This document shows positions 48,114 through 59,176 of a DNA stretch of 64,000 bases, one piece after another (within the stretch, counting starts at the first letter, position 1; every line of letters begins with the position of its first letter). A program made the position numbers and the translations under genes. Source of the stretch: Brachybacterium avium (GTDB taxonomy: Bacteria > Actinomycetota > Actinomycetes > Actinomycetales > Dermabacteraceae); assembly GCF_002216795.1 (NCBI RefSeq), contig NZ_CP022316.1, forward strand, positions 2,445,205 to 2,509,204, written 5' to 3'. The notes under the pieces were generated by a model, which was not told the DNA's origin, made no database searches, and worked only from the letters and a program-made list of their open reading frames with translations.

Positions 48114-49013
48114 TCAGCGGGCCTGCCCACCGCGCCCGCAGGCGGCGCGCCACTCCTCGGGGTCGGCCACAGCAGGCGGCGCACCGTTCGCCCGCAGCCA
48201 GGTGCACACGTTCACGCAGTCGCGGCGCAGGAACTCCGCGCCGTGCGGATTCGCGATCAGGTCCAGTACCTGCGGGACGTCGATGATCACGGGATCGGGC
48301 TCGGACTGCCGGGTGTCGGCGAGGAGGTTGTACGGGGAGAGGTCGCCGTGGACCAGGCCCAGCTGGGCGAGGTCGATGACCACGCCCCGCAGCAGCTCCG
48401 CCCAGCGCGTGATCGTGGCAGCGTCTGGCGTCGTCTCGTGCAGGCGCGGGGCCGCGACGGCACCGCGCTCGTCGTCGGTACCGATGAACTCCATCAACAG
48501 CTCGGTGCCGAGGATCTGCACCGGGTACGGGACCGGCAGACCGGCCTGCCAGAGCCGGCCCAGCACGTCGAACTCGGTGCGGGCCCACTGCGAGGCCGCC
48601 ACCTGCTTGCCGAACGCTGAGCTCTTGGCGACCGCTCTGGCCTCCCTCGAGTCCTTGAGACGGCGGCCCTCGGTGTAGGCGTGGGAACGATGGAAGGTCG
48701 AGTGCTCGGGTGAGCGGTAGCGCTTGGCGACCAGCAGAGCAGCCTCGCCCGCGGCGCCGGTGAGGTGCTCGGTGGGCAGGGCGCGCTCGATGAGGAAGGC
48801 ATCCGCCTCCTTACCGGTCTTGAGGATCCCGAGCTCGGTATCGATCGCGCCGTCATGCTGGACCACCCAGTCGGGGAAGGGCTGCGGGCCGCGATCGATG
48901 ATGTGGGCGGTCTCCGGCCATGTGGACCAGCGCTGGTCGTCGTCGAGCTCGGCGACGGAGAGGAAGTGCATCGACTTCGCGAAGAAGGCGTCCCGGTCGA
49001 AGGACGTGGTCAT
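48114..49013 (-). CDS. RIO-type atypical serine protein kinase
   Basis: 299 aa. GKEADAF, ELLMEFIG, catalytic LVHGDLSPYNLL motifs. Confidence 0.7.
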   Translation of the reverse strand: MTTSFDRDAFFAKSMHFLSVAELDDDQRWSTWPETAHIIDRGPQPFPDWVVQHDGAIDTELGILKTGKEADAFLIERALPTEHLTGAAGEAALLVAKRYRSPEHSTFHRSHAYTEGRRLKDSREARAVAKSSAFGKQVAASQWARTEFDVLGRLWQAGLPVPYPVQILGTELLMEFIGTDDERGAVAAPRLHETTPDAATITRWAELLRGVVIDLAQLGLVHGDLSPYNLLADTRQSEPDPVIIDVPQVLDLIANPHGAEFLRRDCVNVCTWLRANGAPPAVADPEEWRAACGRGGQAR

Positions 49014-49241
49014 GGGATCTCCTGAGGGAGGACCTGCGAATGCTCAGCAGGTCGGAGCGGAAGGGAGGACTGCACGGGTCAGCACGGCGGGGACCATCAG
49101 CTCCTCCTTCCCTCAGGGCTCCATCCGGAACCGGTATCACCGTACGACGGGGAGGCGGCGGGGCGCGAGGGAATTCTCGGAGCCTGGGGAGCGCCGGGGG
49201 AGGAGTGGCCCGGAAGCCGTCCGCTGCGGGACACTGTTCCC

Positions 49242-49973
49242 ATGTTTCTCGAGAACCTCGGCGTCGACGCCCTGGACCCTCTCCGCCTCGGCCGCTTCTG
49301 GGAAGCGGCGCTGGGCACGACCTCGCTCACGGTGGAGCCCGACCTCCTCGAGACGCGGCTGGACCTCGACGGGACCGCGTATCTGGACCTGTGCTTCGTG
49401 CGGGTGCCCGCACCGAACCAGGCGCCGCTGCGCCTGCAGCTCGCGCTGCGCGGCGGGACGGAGCAGGCCGACGTGGTCGAGCGCCTGCGAGGACTCGGCG
49501 CCGAGGAGCTCGACAGCGGGCATGGTGGGCAGCCCCGGGGCGAGCTCGCCGACGTCGAGGGGAGAGCCTTCCGCGTGAGGGGCGAGCAGGAGGAGTGCGT
49601 CGATACGGGACCGCTCGCGGCGGTGCTGCTGGAGTCCGCCGATCCGGAGCGGGACGCGGAGTTCTGGGCCTGGCTGAGCGGCTGGGCGCCGGCGCCGGAC
49701 CGCGGGGCGCACACCCTGCGCCACCCGTCCCTGCATGGACCGCTGCTCGAGCTCGTCCCGGAGCGGGCGCCCAAGCGGCCCGATGCGAAGAATCCGATCC
49801 ACCTCGACGTGCGCCTCGAGCCGGGCGAGGACCCCGAGGAGATCGCCGCCGAGATCGAGCGGCGCGGCGGCCGCGAGATGCACCCCGACTGGGGAGAGCT
49901 GCCCTGGCGGGTGCATCAGGACCCCTCCGGGAACGAGTTCTGCGTGCTGCCCGCGCCGGCGGTCGCGCCGTGA
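49242..49973 (+). CDS. VOC/glyoxalase-like family protein (two-module)
   Basis: 243 aa. Weak glyoxalase/bleomycin-resistance fold similarity. Confidence 0.5.
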   Translation: MFLENLGVDALDPLRLGRFWEAALGTTSLTVEPDLLETRLDLDGTAYLDLCFVRVPAPNQAPLRLQLALRGGTEQADVVERLRGLGAEELDSGHGGQPRGELADVEGRAFRVRGEQEECVDTGPLAAVLLESADPERDAEFWAWLSGWAPAPDRGAHTLRHPSLHGPLLELVPERAPKRPDAKNPIHLDVRLEPGEDPEEIAAEIERRGGREMHPDWGELPWRVHQDPSGNEFCVLPAPAVAP

Positions 49974-50332
49974 GCGACGGGCGGCGGACCGCCGCCTTCC
50001 TGTCCGTGCTGCTGGGGGCGGCCGGGGTCCTGCACCTCACCCGGCCCGCACCCTTCGACAGCATCGTCCCGCCCGTACTGCCCGGGCCGGCGCGCACCTA
50101 CACCTGCGCCTCGGGCGCGGCGGAGCTCGTCGTCGCGGGCCTGCTCGCGCATCCGCGCACCCGCCGCCTCGGCGGGCACGCTGCGACCGCACTGCTGGTC
50201 GCCGTGTTCCCCGCGAATGTGCAGATGGCGTACGACTGGCGCCATGCCCGACCGCGGAAGCGGGTGATCGCGCTGGCACGCCTGCCGCTGCAGGGCGTGC
50301 TCATCGCGCAGGCTCGGCGCGTGGCGCGATGA
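49970..50332 (+). CDS. small DoxX-like membrane protein
   Basis: GTG start overlapping the VOC stop (GTGA). 120 aa with 3 hydrophobic segments. Its stop overlaps the MFS start (ATGA). Confidence 0.4.
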   Translation: MSDGRRTAAFLSVLLGAAGVLHLTRPAPFDSIVPPVLPGPARTYTCASGAAELVVAGLLAHPRTRRLGGHAATALLVAVFPANVQMAYDWRHARPRKRVIALARLPLQGVLIAQARRVAR

Positions 50333-51573
50333 CCGCGCCCCTGACCCTCCCCGTCGACGGCCTCGAGCGGCGTCGGGTCCAGCGACGCACCATCGCGGTG
50401 CTGATCGCGGGCCAGATCATCTCCGGCCTCGGGATCGGTGCGGCGGTGAGCATGGGCGCGCTGCTGGTCGCCGCAGTGACCGGCAGCGAGGCGTGGTCCG
50501 GGATGGCCGCGACGATGAACACCCTCGGTGCCGCGCTGTTCGCCATCCCCCTGGCGCTGCTCGCCCGTCGCCGGGGCCGACGGATCTCCCTGACCACCGG
50601 AGCCGTGACGGCAGCGCTCGGCGCCTTCGCAGTGGTCGTCTCCGCGGTCCTCGACAACCCGTTCCTGCTGCTGCTGAGCATGGCGGTGCTGGGCATCGGC
50701 TCCGCCCTGAACTTCCATTCACGGTTCGCCGCCACCGACCTGGCGACCGACTCCACCCGCGGCCGGGACCTCTCCCTGGTGGTGTGGTCCACGACGATCG
50801 GCGCCGTCGTCGGCCCGAACCTCGCCGAGCCCAGCGACGTCCTCGGCCGCTCCCTGGGCCTGCCGGAGCTCACCGGCGGTTTCGTGATCGCCGCGGCCGC
50901 TCAGCTGCTGGGCGCCCTGCTCTACGCGGTCGCGCTGCGCCCGGACCCGCTGCTGCTCGCCCTGGGTCCGCATCGCGCAGTGCCCGCCGGGCCGCAGCGA
51001 CGGGCCGCGCGAGGCCTCGCGATCCTGCGCAGCAACCTCACCGCCCGCCGCGCGGTGCTGGCCACCAGCCTCAGCCATGCGGTGATGGTGGCGCTGATGG
51101 GGATGACACCCATCCACCTGATGGGCCACGGCGCGGACCTCACGATCGTCGGGATCACCATCAGCCTCCACATCGCCGGGATGTTCGGGATCTCCCCAGT
51201 GTTCGGTCTGCTCACCGACCGGGTCGGGGGCCGGGCGGTGATCCTGCTCGGCCAGGTGCTGCTGACGGCGGCGCTGCTGGTCGCGGCGCTGGGATCCCAG
51301 AGCAACCAGCTGGTCGCGATCGCTCTGGTGCTGCTGGGGTTGGGGTGGTCGGCCTCCAACGTCGCCGGGTCCACGATGCTCAGCGGCGCCGTCCCCGTCG
51401 AGCAGCGGCCCGCCACCCAGGGCACCTCGGACCTGCTGATGAACCTCGCCGGTGCGGGCGGTGGGGCGCTGGCCGGGCTGATCCTGGCCGGGGTCGGCTT
51501 CTCCGGCCTCGCCCTCTGCCTCCTGATGCCGGTCGCCGTGGTGACCCTCGACCAGCTGGTGCGGCGCCGCTGA
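50329..51573 (+). CDS. MFS transporter
   Basis: Start MTAPLTLPVDGL. 414 aa, 12 TM. The longer ORF from 49735 is a read-through. Confidence 0.8.
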   Translation: MTAPLTLPVDGLERRRVQRRTIAVLIAGQIISGLGIGAAVSMGALLVAAVTGSEAWSGMAATMNTLGAALFAIPLALLARRRGRRISLTTGAVTAALGAFAVVVSAVLDNPFLLLLSMAVLGIGSALNFHSRFAATDLATDSTRGRDLSLVVWSTTIGAVVGPNLAEPSDVLGRSLGLPELTGGFVIAAAAQLLGALLYAVALRPDPLLLALGPHRAVPAGPQRRAARGLAILRSNLTARRAVLATSLSHAVMVALMGMTPIHLMGHGADLTIVGITISLHIAGMFGISPVFGLLTDRVGGRAVILLGQVLLTAALLVAALGSQSNQLVAIALVLLGLGWSASNVAGSTMLSGAVPVEQRPATQGTSDLLMNLAGAGGGALAGLILAGVGFSGLALCLLMPVAVVTLDQLVRRR

Positions 51574-51596
51574 GACGGGCGAGAGCTGACGAATGC

Positions 51597-51633
51597 CCCA
51601 CATCATTACTATCGACCATAGTAACTATGTGGG
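51597..51633. promoter_or_regulatory. 37-bp imperfect palindrome CCCACAT-CATTACTATCGACCATAGTAACT-ATGTGGG (core TACTAT-N5-ATAGTA) about 40 nt upstream of dsbA-like gene
   Basis: Inverted repeat read from the sequence. The core CATTACTATCG...ATAGT recurs at about 56546-56568. Confidence 0.6.
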
Positions 51634-51675
51634 AGGGTAGCGCCGGATGCCGCACCCGACCCGACCGGAGGACCC

Positions 51676-52455
51676 ATGTCTCGCGCCCATCGATCCGACC
51701 CCACGCATGCGTCGCGGGACGGCGTCCTGCGTCGCTGGGGGATCCCGGTGGGGATCGGGGTCGCCGTCGCCGCGCTGATCGCCGGGGTGTTCTGGGTTCA
51801 GCAGGAACCGGCGACCACGCCCACGCAGGGCAGCGGCGGGAGCTCGACGAGCTCCGAGCAGCCGGCGGCGATCGAGCATCCGGAATCGGTGGCCGCCCCC
51901 GATCTCAGCTCCCAGGAGGGGCGGGATCCCGATGACCAGCTCGCCGAGGGGCCCGTCGATGCGCCGGTCGTGCTGGTCATGTTCTCGGACTTCCAGTGCT
52001 CGTTCTGTGCGAAGTGGTCCGACGAGACCCTGCCGGAGATGCGCGAGTACGTCGAGCGCGGTGAGCTGCGCATCGAGTACCGCGATGTGAACATCTACGG
52101 CGAGGACTCCGAGCGCGCCGCCCGGGCGAGCCTCGCTGCCGCGATGCAGGGTGAGCATGCGCAGTACCACGCACTGCTGTTCGAGGACGGCGAGATCCGC
52201 TCCGGCCAGGGGCTCAGCGAGGAGTCGCTGGTCGAGCTGGCCGGGCAGATCGGCCTGGACACGGAGCAGTTCGCGGCCGATATGAACTCGGAGCAGGTCG
52301 CCGAGACGATCGCGGAGAACGCGCAGCAGGGCATCGACCTCGGGGCGATGTCGACCCCGGCCTTCATCATTGGCGGCACCCCGACCGCCGGCGCGCAGCC
52401 CACCGAGGTGTTCACCGAGCTGGTGGACAAGGCGCTGGCCGAGAGCGAGGGCTGA
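51676..52455 (+). CDS. DsbA-family thiol:disulfide oxidoreductase (thioredoxin fold), membrane-anchored
   Basis: TM anchor (GIPVGIGVAVAALIAGVFWV). CxxC active site FQCSFCAKW. Confidence 0.8.
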   Translation: MSRAHRSDPTHASRDGVLRRWGIPVGIGVAVAALIAGVFWVQQEPATTPTQGSGGSSTSSEQPAAIEHPESVAAPDLSSQEGRDPDDQLAEGPVDAPVVLVMFSDFQCSFCAKWSDETLPEMREYVERGELRIEYRDVNIYGEDSERAARASLAAAMQGEHAQYHALLFEDGEIRSGQGLSEESLVELAGQIGLDTEQFAADMNSEQVAETIAENAQQGIDLGAMSTPAFIIGGTPTAGAQPTEVFTELVDKALAESEG

Positions 52456-52456
52456 G

Positions 52457-53335
52457 ATGGAGGTCGGACTCCTCACCGCCTTCTTCGGCGGGGCGCTCGC
52501 GCTCCTCAGTCCGTGCGGAGCGCTCCTGCTGCCGGGCTTCTTCGCCTCCACCGTGACCTCCCGCGCCGCCCTGCTCCCGCACGCCGTGGTGTTCTATCTC
52601 GGTCTGGTGGTGACCCTGGTCCCGCTCGGCGTCGGCGCCGGGGCGCTCGGAGCCCTGGTGATCGGGCACCGCACCCTGCTGATCGGCATCACCTCGCTGG
52701 TGCTGGTGCTGCTCGGCGCCCTGCACGCCCTGGGCCTCGGCTTCGATCTCAGCCGGGCCCTCCCGGGCTTCGACCGTCTCCAGCAGCGCTCGACCCAGGG
52801 CTCCGGGCTCGCCCGCAGCTTCGTGCTCGGCGCCGTCGGCGGGATCGCCGGATTCTGCGCGGGGCCGATCCTCGGCGCCGTGCTCACCCTGGCCATGGGT
52901 CAGGGGAACATGCTCCTGGCCGGGATCCTGCTCGCCGTTTACGGCGCCGGGATGGTGGTGCCGCTGACCATCCTGGCGGCGGTCTGGAACCGCCTGGGCA
53001 GCCGGGGCAGGAACCTGCTGCGCGGCCGCGAGTTCACGCTGCTGGGGCGACGCCTGCACACCACCACCTTCATCACCGGAGTGGTGATCATCGCCCTCGG
53101 CATCGTGTTCTGGGTGACCAACGGCCTGGTCACCATGCCCTCTCTCGTCCCCACCAGCACCCTCGCCCGCTGGCAGGCGGGCAGCGCCGGTCTCAACGAC
53201 CCCGTCGTGCAGATCGCCGTGATCCTCGCGCTCGGGGCCCTGGCCCTGCTGCTGTGGTGGCGGTGGGACCGGCGTCGGCGGCGGGAGCAGGACGCCCCGA
53301 CCACCATCACCCTGACCCCGGGGAGGCGGCCATGA
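52457..53335 (+). CDS. ccdA: CcdA/DsbD-family cytochrome c biogenesis-type thiol:disulfide transporter
   Basis: Start MEVGLLTAFFGGALALLSPCGALLLPGFF. 292 aa polytopic, with a second Cys (GFCAGPILG). Confidence 0.8.
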   Translation: MEVGLLTAFFGGALALLSPCGALLLPGFFASTVTSRAALLPHAVVFYLGLVVTLVPLGVGAGALGALVIGHRTLLIGITSLVLVLLGALHALGLGFDLSRALPGFDRLQQRSTQGSGLARSFVLGAVGGIAGFCAGPILGAVLTLAMGQGNMLLAGILLAVYGAGMVVPLTILAAVWNRLGSRGRNLLRGREFTLLGRRLHTTTFITGVVIIALGIVFWVTNGLVTMPSLVPTSTLARWQAGSAGLNDPVVQIAVILALGALALLLWWRWDRRRRREQDAPTTITLTPGRRP

Positions 53336-54549
53336 GGCGCCGCAGCGTCCTGGCCGCCCTGCCGCTGGGTCTGCTCGGCCTCAGCGCCTGCGGTCCGGAC
53401 GGCGGCGGCGAGCCCGCCGGTCCGGCGCCGGCGGCCCCGGTCGAGCACCCCGAGCCCGTGCAGGTCGGCGAGCTCGCCGAGGTGGTGGAGTACACCGAGG
53501 TGCGGCTGCCGCTGGAGATGACCCCGATGGTCGTCGTCGACCCCGGCTGGACCGCCGTCCCCCTCCAGCTCGACGGCATCTTCCTCGGCTATCGCGAGGA
53601 GGAGGAGCAGCTGCGGTTCCTCGCCGTCGACCAGGACGGCACCGTGCTGTGGCGGGCGGACCGCCCCCTGAGCTGCACCGGGTACGTGCTGACCCGCGGG
53701 CCGAAGAAGACGCCGATCGCGGTGCTCGCCGATCTGGCCGCCGCCGAGCAGGAGGGGGCCTGGGCGATGACCCTGACGGCCTATGACCTGCGGACCGCCG
53801 AGCCCCTCTGGGGCCCGGTCGAGGCGCCCGGCCCCCAGGCCGCCCCCGGCCTGGTCTATGCGGCACCGACCGATCAGGCGATGGGGGAGGGCGGCCCGCG
53901 CACGGCGCTGTCCGGCGTCACCGGGGAAGTCCTGCTGGCCGAGGTGGATCTCGCCGACGGCCGCATCCTCGGCGAGCATCTGGGCGCGCTGGTGCGCACC
54001 GAGGGCTCCGAGCTGCTGGCCAGCGGCGCCGCCGGCGAGGAGCTCTGGCGCAGCCCGTTGCCCGCCGGGGTCGAACCGGCCCGGGCACGGTTGCGCGGCA
54101 CCGTCGATCCGACCACCTCCTTCGCCGTGATCGGCGACCAGGACTCGCCCGGTGCGGTGATCGACCTCGCCGACGGCCGGGTGATCGCCGAAGGCGCGGA
54201 TGCCGTGGCCCGGGATCACGTCCTCGAGATCACCGTGGTCGTCTCGGGCACGACCGTGCGCGGGCTCGAGGACGACGGCACCGAGAAGTGGACCCATGAG
54301 GATCCCGAGCCGCTCCAGCTGCTCTGCGCCGGGGAGCGCCTGGCCTACGCCGTCCGCCCCGAGGAGGGCACGCTCGTGGTGCTGGACACGAACCACGGCC
54401 TGATGGTCCAGCCCTACGACGTCGACCTGACCGGACCGCTCGCCGTCCCCCAGGTGTTCTCCGCGGACACCGCCGCCGCCGTGCGCATCGAGGAGCAGTT
54501 CTTCCTGGTCACCACCGAGTTCGACGAGGACTTCGGCCTGCGGGAATGA
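53332..54549 (+). CDS. secreted lipoprotein of unknown function (possible beta-propeller)
   Basis: Lipobox LLGLSAC. 405 aa. ATGA overlap with ccdA. Confidence 0.5.
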   Translation: MRRRSVLAALPLGLLGLSACGPDGGGEPAGPAPAAPVEHPEPVQVGELAEVVEYTEVRLPLEMTPMVVVDPGWTAVPLQLDGIFLGYREEEEQLRFLAVDQDGTVLWRADRPLSCTGYVLTRGPKKTPIAVLADLAAAEQEGAWAMTLTAYDLRTAEPLWGPVEAPGPQAAPGLVYAAPTDQAMGEGGPRTALSGVTGEVLLAEVDLADGRILGEHLGALVRTEGSELLASGAAGEELWRSPLPAGVEPARARLRGTVDPTTSFAVIGDQDSPGAVIDLADGRVIAEGADAVARDHVLEITVVVSGTTVRGLEDDGTEKWTHEDPEPLQLLCAGERLAYAVRPEEGTLVVLDTNHGLMVQPYDVDLTGPLAVPQVFSADTAAAVRIEEQFFLVTTEFDEDFGLRE

Positions 54550-54553
54550 GCGC

Positions 54554-55552
54554 TCACAGCAGCAGCGGGCAGCCGTTCAGCAGCAGCACGGCATAGGGGG
54601 CGACGGCGACCGCCGCGAGGCCGAGCAGCGCCGCCAGCAGGGCGGACAGCGTGACGACCGGCACCAGCGCCGAGCGCGCGGCCGCCGGGGAGACCAGGTG
54701 CCCGATCCGGTCGGGTCCGATGCCCGCCGGTCCCCTCGCGTGCAGCAGGGCGCCGGGCGCGGCTGACGGCCCGGGGGCCCCGCACTCGCCGAGGGTGAGC
54801 AGTGCGCTGGCCAGGGCCGGGGTGCCGCTGCGGTGCCGGGAGGCGTCGTCCGCGGCGATCTCCAGCAGGTGCGGCACCGCGACCGCGACCGCATCGAACA
54901 GCGGGATGAGGCGCAGCGGGCCGACCATCGCCTCCAGCACCGCCAGCAGCGTGTGATGGTGCTGGGCGAGATGGGCCGCCTCATGCTCGAGGACGGCGGA
55001 GAGCTCGTCCGCGCCCAGGGAGTCCAGCAGGCCGCGGGAGACGACGATGCCTCCGCGGCGGCGCGGCAGCGCGAACGCCAGCGGCGTCGGATCCGGGACC
55101 AGCAGCACCCGATGTCCGGCGAGGACGGTGCGCACCGCCGACGCCCGCACCTCGGCGAGGACGGACCGCGTGGATCGGGCCCGGCGGAGCAACCCCCGCA
55201 CGGCGGCCGTCCCCATCAGCACGGTCCCGGCCAGTGGCAGCAGGAGCAGGGCCGCCATCGGCACCGGCAGCTCGACCGGGGCGGCGGCGAAGGGGCTGGC
55301 CGCGGCGAGGCAGCGCTGGCAGACCTCGCCGGCGGAGCCCGCGAGCAGCCGGGGACCGCTGGGCAGCCCGGCCAGGGCCACGCTGAGCACCGCCGCCGCC
55401 GTCGACCACACCGCCAGGGCCCCGAGCAGCAGCCCGGAGGCCAGGCGCGGGGCGCGCATCAGCAGCGGGGAGCTCCAGCGCACCAGGCGCGGACCGGTCA
55501 ATGCGAGCAGGACGAGCGCGAGGGTGAGCAGCGCGAACAGGGGAAGCGTCAC
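54554..55552 (-). CDS. M56-family (BlaR1-like) metallopeptidase lacking a C-terminal sensor domain
   Basis: 332 aa, 4 TM. Zinc motif HEAAHLAQHHH. Start overlaps the BlaI-like stop. Confidence 0.8.
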   Translation of the reverse strand: MTLPLFALLTLALVLLALTGPRLVRWSSPLLMRAPRLASGLLLGALAVWSTAAAVLSVALAGLPSGPRLLAGSAGEVCQRCLAAASPFAAAPVELPVPMAALLLLPLAGTVLMGTAAVRGLLRRARSTRSVLAEVRASAVRTVLAGHRVLLVPDPTPLAFALPRRRGGIVVSRGLLDSLGADELSAVLEHEAAHLAQHHHTLLAVLEAMVGPLRLIPLFDAVAVAVPHLLEIAADDASRHRSGTPALASALLTLGECGAPGPSAAPGALLHARGPAGIGPDRIGHLVSPAAARSALVPVVTLSALLAALLGLAAVAVAPYAVLLLNGCPLLL

Positions 55553-55962
55553 GCCGGCGCCGATCCGGGATCCGGGGCGCCGGTGCCGTCGTGGCCGTTG
55601 AGGTACTCGCGCAGCAGCGCGGCCTCCCGATCGTCCATGCCCTTGACGAAGCGCAGGATCGAGGCGCTGCGGTCATTGCTGCTGGACAGCGCCTGCTCCA
55701 TCAGTCGGGCGGCGTGCTCCGAGCGCGGGTGGCGCGGTCGATACCGCACCGAGCGCCCCACCCGGCAGCCGGAGACCAGGTCCTTGCGCCCGAGATTCGA
55801 GAGCACCGTGGCGATCGTGGTGTATGCGTGGTGGTCGCCCAGGCCGGAGATCAGCTCGCGGATCGTCAGCTCCTCGTGCTCCCACAGCTGCTCCATCACC
55901 TGCTGCTCCAGGGTCCCCAGACGCACCTGCTGGAAGGGTCGGGAGTCCTCGGTCCCGCTCAT
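55549..55962 (-). CDS. BlaI/MecI/CopY-family transcriptional repressor
   Basis: Start MSGTEDSRPFQQ. Winged-helix EQQVMEQLWEHEELTIRELISGL. 137 aa. The longer ORF up to 56154 is a read-through. Confidence 0.8.
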   Translation of the reverse strand: MSGTEDSRPFQQVRLGTLEQQVMEQLWEHEELTIRELISGLGDHHAYTTIATVLSNLGRKDLVSGCRVGRSVRYRPRHPRSEHAARLMEQALSSSNDRSASILRFVKGMDDREAALLREYLNGHDGTGAPDPGSAPA

Positions 55963-56528
55963 AGGATCGCCGCCGAACGGGCCGAACGGGCCGGCTCCGC
56001 AGTGGGGAGGGGGCAGGCGACCTGGCCCCGCAGGCGCGAGAGCACCGCGATCACCGAGAGCACGAGGGCGAGGGCGGCCAGGAAGGGCTGGGCGGGCGCG
56101 AACCAGGTCAGCGCCCCGCTGTACCCGAGCGCGAGCAGCGCGAGCTTGTTGCACACGGGGCAGCCCACGGCGAACCAGGCCAGCATGCCGGCCGCGGTCC
56201 CGGTGCGGGCATCACGGCGCTCGCCGGCGTCGGCGGCGCTCCCGGACCGTGCCGCGCGGTCTCCCGGAGGCGCCACGTAGGTGGCGATCAGGAGACCCAT
56301 CAGGGCGGAGGTGAGCAGCCAGACCGGGTAGTTCCACGGCACGGTGGGGATGTCCCGGGAGAAGAGCGAGTTGGGGATCAGCACGGTCGCCAGTCCCATG
56401 GCGATCGCGATCCCGGTCGCGGCGACGACGGCGGTGAGCACCTGCCGGATGCCCCATCCCCGCAGTGCGGAGGCGGACAGGCGGAGGGTCTCCCCGAGGA
56501 GGCGGGGCCAGCGCGAGATCTGTGGCAT
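55959..56528 (-). CDS. small membrane protein with intramembrane CPVC motif, first gene of the BlaI/M56 operon
   Basis: About 190 aa, 4-5 TM. WFAVGCPVCNKLALLALGY. Stop overlaps the BlaI start. Start coordinate +/-3. Confidence 0.45.
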   Translation of the reverse strand: MPQISRWPRLLGETLRLSASALRGWGIRQVLTAVVAATGIAIAMGLATVLIPNSLFSRDIPTVPWNYPVWLLTSALMGLLIATYVAPPGDRAARSGSAADAGERRDARTGTAAGMLAWFAVGCPVCNKLALLALGYSGALTWFAPAQPFLAALALVLSVIAVLSRLRGQVACPLPTAEPARSARSAAIL

Positions 56529-56545
56529 GGCCTTCACTATGCCTC

Positions 56546-56568
56546 ATTCATTACTATCGCGGATAGTC
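56546..56568. promoter_or_regulatory. CATTCATTACTATCGCGGATAGTCG dyad (TACTAT-N5-ATAGTc) immediately upstream of the membrane-protein/BlaI/M56 operon
   Basis: Shares the 11-mer CATTACTATCG and the dyad architecture with the site at 51597-51633. Confidence 0.6.
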
Positions 56569-56605
56569 GTCGTGAGGAGGTCGTCGGCCGCGGCGAGCCG
56601 ACCGC

Positions 56606-58117
56606 TCAGAGCCGGGCCTCGAGCCGTCCAGCGACCACGGTCGCCAGCACCCAGGTCTCCCGCAGCCGCTCCGCCGTCTCCCGGGCCGCGGAGTCGTCCA
56701 TCAGGCCGTCGGCCCCCAGCGGCACGTCGGCGAAGGGGTCCTCCTCCAGCAGCACCACATCACCCACCCCGCCCACCTGGAGGGAGGTGACGCCGTCGGT
56801 CGAGGCGGCGAGGGCCTCGCGGGGCTGCAGCTGCTGCTCGGGATGCCAGCCCGAGCGCTCATCGGCGCTGCGGTGCACGGCGGCGGCCATCGCCAGCCAC
56901 GGGTCCAGCGGCGCGACCGGGGCATCGGAACCCAGCGCGAGCGGCACCCCGGCGCGCAGCAGATCCCGCAGCCGGAAGGCCTGGGTGCCGTGGCCGGGCC
57001 AGAGGGACTCGGTGGCATCACGATCGTCCAGCAGGTGCGCGGGCTGCACGGAGGCGGTGACGCCGAGGGCCGCCATCGCGTCGATGTCGTCTTCGGTGAG
57101 CATCTGCGCATGCTCGATGCTCGCGGTGATGCCGACGGCCCGGATCGCCTCGAGCGCGACCTGCGCGGCGGCATCGCCGATCGCATGCACCGCCGCGTCG
57201 AGCCCCTGGGCCTTCGCCTGGGCAAGGGCGTCCCGCAGCGCCTGCGGGCCCACGCTGAGGACCCCGCGCCCGGCATAGCCATGGCCGTCGGTGTACGCAT
57301 CGCGGGTGTATGCCGAATGGGAGCCGAGCGCCCCGTCGACGATCACCTTCAGCGGGCCCATCGTCACCAGGCCCCGCGCATCCAGCACCGTCCCCGTCGG
57401 GCCGGGGGCCGCCGCGAGCTCCTCGGGATAGACGGAGGTGCGGATCCGCATCCGCGGCGCACGCAACGGCCAGGTCTCCCAGGGACGCCCCCACTCCATG
57501 TCCACCAGCCCCACCACCCCGCGCTGCAGCGCCTGCCGCTGCATCATCGCCGCCCCGGTCGCAACGGCATCGGCGACCCCGGGCAGCACCGGCAGCAGGG
57601 GGACCACCGAGAACCACTCCTCCTCGGCCACGATCCCGTCCCGCGGGGGCAGCGCCAGCCGATGCAGCGCCGCCGAGTTCAGCCAGGCATGGTGGGCATC
57701 CCCGCCGATCAGCACCGTCGGGACCGAGCCCGTCGCCTCGTCGAGCGCCGGCACCGTCGGCTGCACGGCGAAGTCCACCAGGCGATGCCCGAACCCGACC
57801 AGCGCCTGATCCCTCATGCCCGCCTCGCGGCGCGCGGCCAGCTCGGCCCGCACCAGCTCGAGGATCACCCCCACGCTGCCCGCGCCGCCGGTGTCCAGGC
57901 GGGCATGGGCCTGCGCGAGCTGCCCGGTGTGGACATGCCGGTCCCACAGCCCGGGGATCGCGAGCGCTCCCTCGCCGTCCAGGGCCTCCTCGCCGGGCAC
58001 GGGGGAGAGGTCCGGGGCGATCTCGGTGATCACGCCGTCATGGATCCGCAGGTCCACCGGCGCGTCAGGAGCTTCGCCCGTGGCGGCGTCGAACGGCCGC
58101 ACCTGTCTGATCAGCAC
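56606..58117 (-). CDS. amidohydrolase-family metal-dependent hydrolase (amidohydro_3-like)
   Basis: GTG start at about 58117 (VLIRQVRPFDAATG). HVHTGQ and AVHAIGDAA metal-binding blocks. The ORF continuation to 59239 is antisense to the ABC ATPase. Confidence 0.7.
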   Translation of the reverse strand: MLIRQVRPFDAATGEAPDAPVDLRIHDGVITEIAPDLSPVPGEEALDGEGALAIPGLWDRHVHTGQLAQAHARLDTGGAGSVGVILELVRAELAARREAGMRDQALVGFGHRLVDFAVQPTVPALDEATGSVPTVLIGGDAHHAWLNSAALHRLALPPRDGIVAEEEWFSVVPLLPVLPGVADAVATGAAMMQRQALQRGVVGLVDMEWGRPWETWPLRAPRMRIRTSVYPEELAAAPGPTGTVLDARGLVTMGPLKVIVDGALGSHSAYTRDAYTDGHGYAGRGVLSVGPQALRDALAQAKAQGLDAAVHAIGDAAAQVALEAIRAVGITASIEHAQMLTEDDIDAMAALGVTASVQPAHLLDDRDATESLWPGHGTQAFRLRDLLRAGVPLALGSDAPVAPLDPWLAMAAAVHRSADERSGWHPEQQLQPREALAASTDGVTSLQVGGVGDVVLLEEDPFADVPLGADGLMDDSAARETAERLRETWVLATVVAGRLEARL

Positions 58118-58219
58118 CGATCCAGAGTAGCCCCCGCCGGGCAGACCATGACGACTGTCATGGGCAGGGGGTGATCGCGGGGACTGGGGCGCGGCGCCCG
58201 CGGCCGGGAGGCTGGAGCC

Positions 58220-59176
58220 ATGACCACGACGACCGCGCCCGTTCCCGACACCTCGACCATCACCGCTGCGATCAGCCTCTGCGGCGTCACCAGGACCTAC
58301 GGCGGCGTTCGCGCCCTGGACAGCCTCGACCTCGAGATCCGCCCCGGCGAGATCGTCGCGCTGCTGGGCCCCAACGGTGCCGGCAAATCCACCGCGATGG
58401 AGATGATGGTGGGGATCGCGACACCGGAGGCCGGGCAGGTGCACATCCTCGGCACCGACCCAGCCACCGCCACCCGCACCGGACTGATCGGCACCATGCT
58501 CCAGGCCGGCGCGCTGCTGCCCGACCAGAGCGTCCGCTCGATGCTGCGGATGCTCCACTCCCTGCAGGCCCACCCCATGCCGATGGACGAGGTCGTCTCC
58601 CAGGCCGATGTCGGTGAGCTGCTGCGGCGGAAGATGGGGGCGCTCTCCGGCGGGCAGGCCCAGCGGGTCCGCTTCGCGATCGCCCTGCTCGGCGACCCGC
58701 AGGTGCTGCTGCTGGACGAGCCCACCGTCGGCATGGACATCGGCGCCCGCCGCGCCTTCTGGGGCCAGATGCGCGCCGTCGCCGCGACCGGCCGCACCGT
58801 CGTCTTCGCCACCCATCAGCTCGAGGAGGCCGAGCGCGAGGCCGCCCGCGTCGTGGTCATGGATCGCGGCCGCGTGGTCGCCGACGGCACCGGCGCCGAG
58901 ATCAGCGCCGCCGTCGCCGGGCGCGTGATCACCCTGGGCGGCGTCGCGCCCGCCCAGATCGCGAACCTTCCCGGGGTCGAGAGCGCCGCGGCCGACGAGA
59001 CCGACCCGCGCCGGGTGCGCGCCCTCTGCACGGACTCCGATGCGGCACTGGCCGCACTGTTCACCGGACCCCTCGCCGCCGAGGTCCACGAGGTCCTGGT
59101 CTCCGCACCCGGCCTCGAGGAGGCGTTCTTGCGCATCACCGACCACGACGCCGACCACGAAGGAGACCGCCGATGA
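58220..59176 (+). CDS. ABC transporter ATP-binding protein
   Basis: Walker A GPNGAGKST. Signature LSGGQAQR. Walker B LLLDEPT. Confidence 0.85.
   Translation: MTTTTAPVPDTSTITAAISLCGVTRTYGGVRALDSLDLEIRPGEIVALLGPNGAGKSTAMEMMVGIATPEAGQVHILGTDPATATRTGLIGTMLQAGALLPDQSVRSMLRMLHSLQAHPMPMDEVVSQADVGELLRRKMGALSGGQAQRVRFAIALLGDPQVLLLDEPTVGMDIGARRAFWGQMRAVAATGRTVVFATHQLEEAEREAARVVVMDRGRVVADGTGAEISAAVAGRVITLGGVAPAQIANLPGVESAAADETDPRRVRALCTDSDAALAALFTGPLAAEVHEVLVSAPGLEEAFLRITDHDADHEGDRR

Follow-up and report, generated by a model that had tools for sequence, protein, structure and literature searches.

The 64,000-nt stretch of Brachybacterium avium DNA analyzed here (from contig NZ_CP022316.1; hereafter, the window) carries three overlapping genes, which we refer to as A, B, and C, and which encode a polytopic membrane protein with an intramembrane cysteine pair, a BlaI/MecI-type repressor, and a zinc membrane protease, respectively. 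As judged from comparisons with other actinobacterial genomes, A-B-C is half of a six-gene horizontally mobile unit, the other half consisting of genes D, E, and F, which encode a DsbA/TsdA-like thiol-disulfide oxidoreductase, a CcdA-type electron transporter, and a beta-propeller lipoprotein. On balance, we favor the interpretation that the unit is a BlaI/BlaR-type regulon responding to envelope thiol stress, in which the protease C is the likely sensor, and A, which represents a membrane-protein family without a published description, acts as a cysteine relay associated with the CcdA-type product of gene E.

Genes A to F form a conserved set

Genes A, B, and C overlap stop to start, as stated in a preliminary description of this region: among the window open reading frames (ORFs), the A stop/B start junction is ATGA, the B stop/C start junction is GTGA, and all three genes lie on the minus strand (Table 1). 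We collected 80 loci, one per species, from homologues of A, predicted their genes using an ORF caller based on the codon-position GC order GC3>GC1>GC2, and determined gene content by clustering, followed by tblastn with the window proteins. The 4-nt overlaps are retained at the A/B junction in 41 of 53 loci, and at the B/C junction in 45 of 53, far above chance expectation, so that A, B, and C are presumably made in a fixed ratio through translational coupling. The association of A with the BlaI/M56 pair, on which the preliminary description depended, recurs in related genomes, with the order A-B-C present in 59 of the 80 species-level loci spanning several actinobacterial orders, and a functional link between A and this pair is well supported by such conservation of gene order.

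The same description presented A-B-C as a three-gene module, and although the linkage between the three genes is real, they are not the complete unit, since six genes share one predicted operator. D lies alongside A in 62 of the 80 loci, with E present as well in 58 of those, and F is present in 40 of the 80. The genes accompanying A are B, C, D, E, and F in 35 loci; B, C, D, and E in 17; only D and E in three; only B and C in three; other partial sets in 10; and none of the five in 12. The set of B, C, D, and E, with or without F, is thus found in 52 of the 80 loci. The D-E-F and A-B-C groups are divergently oriented in most genomes and convergent in Brachybacterium, and a plasmid of Pseudonocardia autotrophica has the order B-C-D-E-A. 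We confirmed the pattern by independent gene calls and Pfam searches in Stackebrandtia, Ruania, and Demequina, and through the NCBI Prokaryotic Genome Annotation Pipeline (PGAP) annotation of a Microbacterium plasmid. That the gene order is shuffled and yet the set is kept supports the linkage of B through F with A.

The products of D, E, and F are all related to known families. D matches Pfam Thioredoxin_4 (E = 1.5e-21, 77.7 bits) and DSBA (E = 9.7e-18, 65.1 bits), its CxxC motif is 100% conserved, and its nearest entries in the PDB are those of Corynebacterium diphtheriae TsdA/CdDsbA (4pwo and 7unn; E ~1e-33); similarity to ScsC-type copper-resistance proteins is weak (~1e-5). E matches Pfam DsbD_TM (E = 3.9e-11; 43.1 bits, cutoff 27.1), the cysteines C20 and C134 in its transmembrane (TM) segments are 100% conserved, and its orthologues are named 'cytochrome c biogenesis CcdA family protein' by PGAP. 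F matches PQQ_2 (E = 4.7e-09), and its lipobox cysteine is 100% conserved.

Table 1. Coordinates of genes and predicted operators in the window, and of related features in the surveyed loci (locus handles beginning with L)
Feature	Coordinates	Strand	Description
Gene A	55959..56528	(-)	4-TM membrane protein, 189 aa; ATG 56528, stop TGA 55961-55959
Gene B	55549..55962	(-)	BlaI/MecI-type winged-helix repressor, 137 aa; ATG 55962-55960, stop TGA 55551-55549
Gene C	54554..55552	(-)	Zinc membrane protease, 332 aa; GTG 55552-55550, stop 54556-54554
Gene D	51676..52455	(+)	Membrane-anchored DsbA/TsdA-like thiol-disulfide oxidoreductase, active site CSFC
Gene E	52457..53335	(+)	CcdA/DsbD-type transmembrane thiol-disulfide electron transporter
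Gene F	53332..54549	(+)	PQQ_2/BamB-like beta-propeller lipoprotein; start overlaps E stop by 4 nt
Predicted BlaI-type operator, ACTATCGCGGATAGT	56553..56567	.	25-39 nt upstream of the ATG of A
Second predicted operator copy, ACTATCGACCATAGT	51608..51622	.	54 nt upstream of D
Island copies	L034, L036, L037, L038, L042, L044 (whole loci); L081:1005-11547
cst-like genes	L081:1-2936; L091:1-1850; L097:6038-9355; L102:750-4132		Hint at reactive sulfur as an alternative signal

In the window, the convergent genes F and C have stop codons 4 nt apart (54549-54554), and transcription of the two operons may produce overlapping antisense RNA.

A predicted operator shared by the two operons

The palindrome ACTATC-N3-GATAGT, with two or fewer mismatches permitted, has just two matches in the 64-kb window, one upstream of A and the other upstream of D (Table 1). 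When the 80 loci (737 kb) were surveyed with the looser pattern ACTA[TC]-N5-[AG]TAGT, 152 sites were found, with 107 positioned no more than 200 nt upstream of A, typically as one to three tandem copies spaced 16-17 bp apart. A further 22 sites lie upstream of D in loci where D has its own promoter (that is, where it is not divergent from A), and 21 are elsewhere, mostly as tandem pairs preceding further genes such as lnt. The palindrome is located upstream of A or D in 60 of the 64 loci with B, compared with only 1 of the 16 loci without B, and this sole exception (L067) is a truncated contig. Because the palindrome co-occurs with B and is present before both operons, we predict that it is the operator of B and that a single regulon is involved; there is thus strong comparative evidence for ACTAT-N5-ATAGT as the predicted operator, with A-B-C and D-E-F together constituting one putatively autoregulated regulon. 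A scan of positions 51400-56800 for sigma-70 promoters and intrinsic terminators returned nothing, although a negative of this kind carries no weight in a high-GC actinobacterium.

In some genomes the regulon is larger, adding the apolipoprotein N-acyltransferase Lnt (L027, L030, L032, and L043; confirmed with Pfam), and in some a DsrE-like protein. We note that lnt is situated either inside the operons or behind an operator pair of its own (L043:1-1344, L027:6839-8452, and L030:259-1935), and that on the Streptomyces plasmid pFRL4 lnt and lgt come directly after an A-like gene (L094:5923-8852). A tandem operator pair also precedes the gene for a 194-aa protein (L034:9876-10496 and L081:10868-11488, with equivalents in L036, L037, L042, and L044), which contains several cysteines and a TM segment near its N terminus, matches no Pfam family, and is a candidate regulon member. 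A further operator-linked gene (cluster 9) was considered as a possible sortase, but this was dropped, as there is no Pfam match.

Repressor B and the external cysteines of protease C

B is a clear member of Pfam Penicillinase_R (PF03965; 79.7 bits against a cutoff of 22.6, E = 2.8e-22), and its nearest solved structure is 2g9w (E = 7.8e-15), which we take to be the M. tuberculosis BlaI protein Rv1846c. It scores only 23.2 bits against the NCBIfam model CopY_TcrY (cutoff 121.95) and is not a member of the CopY subfamily of direct copper sensors, which is characterized by a C-terminal CxCxxxxCxC metal site, and no conserved cysteine is present among 29 orthologues. Lacking a conserved cysteine and failing the CopY model, B is unlikely to sense metal directly. 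In a comparison with the S. aureus sequence, an X-Phe position in B presumably aligns with the known BlaI cleavage region, and we regard the alignment as a lead only.

C is a membrane protease of the M48/M56 clan, as indicated by its match to the M48 hidden Markov model and by an HExxH motif located between TM3 and TM4. It passes the Peptidase_M48 threshold (39.5 bits, cutoff 20.3) and fails that of Peptidase_M56 (12.6 bits, cutoff 31), with many of its orthologues carrying both M48 and M56 matches (the latter precomputed, PF05569) and bearing the NCBI name 'M56 family metallopeptidase'. The active-site motif is HEAAHLAQHHH (residues 189-199), within which HEAAH is invariant among orthologues, together with a downstream E-x-x-x-D. 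The protein has four TM segments and ends 7 residues past TM4, and Pfam finds no penicillin-binding (transpeptidase) domain, in line with the preliminary description of C as a 4-TM protease core without a sensor domain. In calling C a minimal M56 protease, that description was right about the sensor-less form, but this form is not out of the ordinary: a transpeptidase domain is found in ~6% of ~15,000 M56 proteins, and ~94% have no penicillin-binding domain (PMC13492132).

An AlphaFold 2 (AF2) model of C (predicted local distance difference test [pLDDT] score of 87.6; predicted template modeling score of 0.86) gives S. aureus BlaR1 (8exq) as the top Foldseek match, and the topology, evaluated over 86 homologues, is also BlaR1-like, with the TM2-TM3 loop outside, the protease domain inside, and the 7-residue tail outside. 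Three conserved cysteines occupy these external parts. C78 and C81 (motif VCQRCL) are on a short helix in the external TM2-TM3 loop and are 100% conserved in orthologues, and for C328, which is part of the external tail, the figure is 95%. The TM2-TM3 loop is also the route by which the BlaR1 sensor domain communicates. We infer that the CxxC and the terminal cysteine of C may together provide a minimal built-in sensor. Distant sensor-less M56 paralogues are without this cysteine triad and have no A, D, or E nearby, and one of them (P0222) has a thioesterase-blaI-blaR-gnd-guaB context, which is typical of M. tuberculosis Rv1845c. Viewed from the C side, both of the two CxxC-type C proteins that were checked have A upstream.

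Gene A encodes a conserved four-TM protein linked to CcdA

Gene A matches no Pfam or NCBIfam family, and neither a fold relative nor a PDB relative was found with its sequence and AF2 model (pLDDT 76.6; helix break at 122-123). There are >1955 homologues, all named ones being actinobacterial and annotated as hypothetical, and the family comprises 923 clusters at 50% identity. Application of the positive-inside rule, using hydrophobicity and K+R counts averaged over 84 homologues, shows four TM segments with both the N and C termini inside. The CPVC motif is placed in the middle of TM3, at the helix break of the AF2 model, agreeing with the intramembrane position initially given for it, and C172 is located where TM4 meets the cytoplasm. 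All 84 close homologues and 108 of the 111 distant ones have CPxC, and its conservation is therefore secure. It was also thought to be the only conserved-looking feature of A, which is not so, as TVLIPN, R58, WNYPVW, N127-K128, Q147-P148, R165, and C172 are likewise invariant or nearly so; the signature of the family is CP(V/I/T)CNK in TM3, QP at the start of TM4, and the cytoplasmic C172.

Several lines of evidence connect A with the redox genes. In two Micromonospora genomes (WP_216933193.1; L102:5001-6374), there is a natural fusion in which CcdA is N-terminal and A is C-terminal, and the junction between the two is an Arg-rich linker on the cytoplasmic side, consistent with the N terminus of A being inside. 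The operon encoding the L102 fusion has the order D-E::A-B-C and is directly 3' of CsoR-like, rhodanese, and TauE genes. Moreover, A is present with D and E but without B, C, or the operator in three loci (L007, L013, and L014), and it is alone, with none of B through F, in 12 loci, in which its cysteines are always kept. By these genomic associations, A is tied to the CcdA/DsbA-like genes at least as closely as to protease C. We also note that where A occurs without B through E (L059, L065, L071, and L050), the genes upstream include one for a CsoR-like regulator, and the neighborhood has a thiol-redox theme; from inspection by eye rather than with Pfam, we take the other neighbors to encode a PIG-L/LmbE-type deacetylase fused to OsmC, and a thioredoxin.

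The preliminary description envisaged A as a replacement for the absent BlaR1 sensor domain. In such a scheme A would be the signal receptor, with the intramembrane CPVC binding a metal or changing its redox state and relaying this to C. The conserved A-B-C order is consistent with this, as are the fixed stoichiometry implied by the 4-nt overlaps, the near-invariance of CPxCNK, the occurrence of A beside B and C even when D and E are missing (the S. mirabilis plasmid locus L090, and L079), and the way in which the operator tracks the presence of B downstream of A. Nonetheless, we consider a receptor role doubtful. C has its own conserved external cysteine triad, located where the sensor domain and loop of BlaR1 interact, whereas the cysteines of A are intramembrane or cytoplasmic, and are thus away from those of C. 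The cysteines of A are also retained without B and C, both in L007, L013, and L014 and in the 12 orphan loci; the natural fusion is to CcdA, and not to the protease; and the P. autotrophica operon has A in last place, after CcdA. The proposed link between A and the BlaI/M56 pair therefore stands, but substitution for the sensor domain is made less likely by the cysteine triad of C and the CcdA fusion, and A is more likely to be a CcdA-associated cysteine relay than a replacement sensor.

We also considered whether A, perhaps together with F, could be a DsbB/VKOR/DsbI-like oxidase that reoxidizes D, such that the cluster is a back-up oxidative folding system like that of TsdA. A is, after all, a 4-TM protein with a CxxC motif, and D is nearest to C. 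diphtheriae TsdA, which is stress-induced and can replace the oxidase MdbA. DsbI of Helicobacter pylori is reported to join a DsbB-like domain to a beta-propeller (PMC4597128). This seems improbable, however, in that A has no similarity to DsbB or VKOR in Pfam even at E<=1, it lacks an extracytoplasmic cysteine pair, its CxxC being in the middle of the membrane, and it is fused to, and shares operons with, CcdA. CcdA provides reducing power, and combining it with an oxidase would result in futile cycling.

Possible MerT likeness of the C-terminal half of A

The window A protein scores 11.4 bits against Pfam MerT (PF02411), below the cutoff of 32.9, and similar subthreshold matches are seen in 17 of 84 A members, the best having an E value of 0.009 among the 84. 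For profile comparisons we used the Tn501 MerT sequence, which is 100% identical to annotated merT in >1800 plasmids, and a MerT profile of five sequences built from annotated plasmid genes. The hhalign probability for A is 59% against the single MerT sequence, but against the five-sequence profile residues 102-170 of A align with MerT residues 2-73 at 89.1% probability (E = 2.2e-6; 39% identity over 66 columns). When the C-terminal half was used in a tblastn search of plasmids at E<=10, no annotated MerT was among the matches, and the MerT link of A thus comes from profile methods alone. No mer context (MerR, MerP, or MerA) is present in the window, the 80 loci, or the plasmid records examined. 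We treat the MerT-like appearance of the C-terminal half of A as a lead, and not as family membership.

Mobility and genomic neighbors

A 10.5-kb island containing the six-gene cluster and cst-like genes recurs with 97-99% nucleotide identity in genera of three orders (Table 1), the carriers being Microlunatus, Microbacterium, Thermocrispum, a propionibacterium, and Haematomicrobium, and a copy on a Microbacterium plasmid (NZ_CP072877.1) shows 98.9% identity. Such high identity across orders, together with the plasmid location, indicates recent horizontal transfer, and mobility of this kind would be expected of a resistance module.

The neighbors of the cluster have two themes. Of the distant plasmid copies, that of the metal-resistant S. 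mirabilis sits among genes for a P-type ATPase, NixA, DUF305, and DUF6153; the Rubrobacter copy is among genes for ArsR, CDF, CsoR-like, and Cu-binding proteins; and a P-type ATPase gene adjoins the cluster in 5 of the 80 loci. In 15 of the 80 loci, as well as in L081, L091, L097, and L102 (Table 1), the cluster is bordered by sulfide/persulfide detoxification genes similar to cst, comprising MBL-rhodanese, rhodanese-YgaP, TauE/SafE, CsoR/CstR-like, and DsrE genes. The metal and sulfur themes could both point to stress on exposed thiols. As the signal, Cu(I) or another soft metal seems to us marginally more likely than reactive sulfur, because of the precedent of the Synechocystis PetR/PetP system (described below) and the MerT likeness of A.

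These neighbors also bear on whether A could be a MerT-like importer or scavenger of soft metals (Hg, Cu, Ag, or Cd), in which D is MerP-like, E reduces D, and the BlaI/M56 pair is merely the regulator, an arrangement that we regard as possible but rather unlikely. The 89% hhalign alignment with MerT, with the same topology and cysteine layout, is in its favor, along with the metal-resistance genes surrounding the plasmid copies and the adjacent P-type ATPase genes, the weak similarity of D to ScsC-type copper-resistance proteins, and the mobility of the island. But MerA, MerR, and MerP are absent from every locus seen, A falls below the Pfam MerT threshold and lacks the third TM segment and the second cytoplasmic cysteine of MerT, and the import of a toxic metal in the absence of a detoxifying enzyme is hard to rationalize. 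Furthermore, the commonest additional neighbors are sulfur-detoxification genes, and not metal genes.

The regions flanking the cluster in the window (48114-51573 and 56606-59176) look unrelated to it, and encode a RIO-type kinase, a glyoxalase-like protein, an MFS transporter, an Amidohydro_3 enzyme, and what we take to be an ABC ATPase, the last label being read from the ORF translation rather than from Pfam.

A model for an envelope thiol-stress response

A plausible mechanism for the favored thiol-stress regulon is that C senses through its three outward-facing cysteines, the CxxC in the TM2-TM3 loop and the cysteine in the tail that follows TM4. Bridging or oxidation of these cysteines by a thiol-reactive agent, most likely Cu(I) or another soft metal and otherwise reactive sulfur species or oxidants, would join the end of TM4 with the loop in the manner of the acylated sensor domain of BlaR1, and so switch on the protease and lead to cleavage of B. 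Derepression would increase the levels of D (which would be kept reduced by E), F, and in some genomes Lnt or the DsrE-like protein, such that exposed thiols are repaired or protected; recovery of these thiols would then reset the sensor. A could function as a MerT-related, cysteine-lined relay that works physically with CcdA and transfers across the membrane either a thiophilic ligand or reducing equivalents. A more elaborate version, to which we attach little confidence, is that A, CcdA, and the cysteine-triad protease form a single complex, a thiol-based transmembrane signaling device in which A, by moving a thiophilic ligand or reducing equivalents between cytoplasm and envelope, determines the state of the outward-facing cysteines of C. 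If so, the large class of sensor-less BlaR proteins would for the first time have a defined signal and an accessory subunit, and the complex would link the thiol or metal status of the envelope directly to proteolysis of a BlaI repressor.

Several observations weigh against the proposed regulon and its mechanism. The more distant versions of the system (L089, L090, and L102) do not have the exact palindrome, and the assignment of the operator to B is a prediction from comparison alone. The metal and sulfur neighbors suggest two classes of signal, and perhaps are only fellow passengers on mobile islands. The MerT relationship is below the Pfam threshold and rests on 66 aligned columns, most of which are hydrophobic; A has one cytoplasmic cysteine, not two, and is devoid of mer context. 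Finally, the in vivo activity of C. diphtheriae TsdA is that of an oxidase (PMC9974433), and D is therefore not necessarily a reductase.

The signal for nearly all BlaR-like proteases lacking a penicillin-binding domain is undefined (PMC13492132), and the cysteine-triad subfamily provides a handle on this question, through the three external cysteines of C, the predicted operator, a coherent regulon, and the conserved accessory protein A. The system is widespread in the Actinobacteria, as reflected in the number of A clusters, and it moves between orders on a plasmid-borne island. If the sensed agent were shown to be copper, another soft metal, or reactive sulfur, the system would represent a new type of response to envelope thiol stress among high-GC Gram-positive bacteria and would provide a function for a new protein family that is naturally fused to CcdA.

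Comparison with known systems

Literature searches for this combination of genes found no published description. The apparently undescribed components are the protease subfamily with the external cysteine triad, the accessory protein A, and the DsbA-like/CcdA regulon with its predicted operator.

The most familiar relatives are BlaR1/BlaI and MecR1/MecI of Staphylococcus and Bacillus, which share with B and C a Penicillinase_R repressor and a 4-TM zinc protease with a cytoplasmic HExxH motif, as well as an autoregulated operon with a palindromic operator (predicted here); BlaR1 (8exq) is also the best structural match of C. C differs from BlaR1 and MecR1 in having no penicillin-binding domain, and in possessing instead a 7-residue tail with one cysteine and a CxxC in its loop. 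In addition, there is no beta-lactamase target, A leads the operon, and the regulon is composed of DsbA-like, CcdA, and lipoprotein genes. Sensor-less BlaIR systems have been described, including M. tuberculosis Rv1846c/Rv1845c, M. abscessus BlaIR, and Clostridioides difficile CenIR (PMC13492132), and these have the same architecture as B-C, with 2g9w as the nearest solved relative of B. However, the M. tuberculosis-type orthologue P0222 has neither the CxxC nor the terminal cysteine, is without A, D, or E as neighbors, and belongs to a separate paralogous subfamily.

The D and E proteins have counterparts in ScsB/ScsC (copper tolerance), the CcdA-Etrx system of Streptococcus pneumoniae, and C. 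diphtheriae TsdA/CdDsbA, in which a DsbA-fold CxxC protein is likewise associated with a DsbD/CcdA-type transporter; for example, a CcdA-like protein has been proposed to maintain CdDsbA in the reduced state (PMC4546943). These systems differ in having no known BlaI/M56 control and no A-like protein. In C. diphtheriae, tsdA is beside a HAD hydrolase gene, and a suppressor mutation maps to its -10 box (PMC9974433); when we checked this 'cryptic' tsdA promoter, neither the operator described here nor this gene context was present.

For gene A, the closest comparison is with MerT. The C-terminal half of A aligns with TM1-TM2 of MerT, and in both the cysteine motif is in the first of two helices, an ALG(F/Y)SGA motif is in the loop, and a cysteine directly follows the second helix on the cytoplasmic side. 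MerT differs in having a vicinal CC and two cytoplasmic cysteines, where A has CPxC and one cytoplasmic cysteine. A also has two additional N-terminal TM segments, does not have TM3 of MerT, and is not near mer genes.

A precedent for the regulatory pair is PetR/PetP of Synechocystis, in which PetP, a sensor-less M48/M56 protease, degrades the BlaI-type repressor PetR only in the presence of copper, and conserved Met residues in the PetP TM2-TM3 loop are the proposed copper ligands (bioRxiv 10.1101/2020.07.31.226407). The two systems have in common a repressor without CopY cysteines, a sensor-less 4-TM M48/M56 protease, overlapping repressor and protease genes, candidate ligand residues in the TM2-TM3 loop, and palindromes whose half-sites flank an N5 spacer (GAC-N5-GTC for the operator of PetR). 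PetP, however, has two loop methionines and not a CxxC and terminal cysteine, and it is accompanied by neither an A-like gene nor a Dsb/CcdA regulon. Moreover, PetR/PetP is cyanobacterial and controls photosynthetic electron carriers in the switch between cytochrome c6 and plastocyanin, whereas the actinobacterial unit is predicted to control genes for a DsbA-like protein, a CcdA-type transporter, and a lipoprotein.

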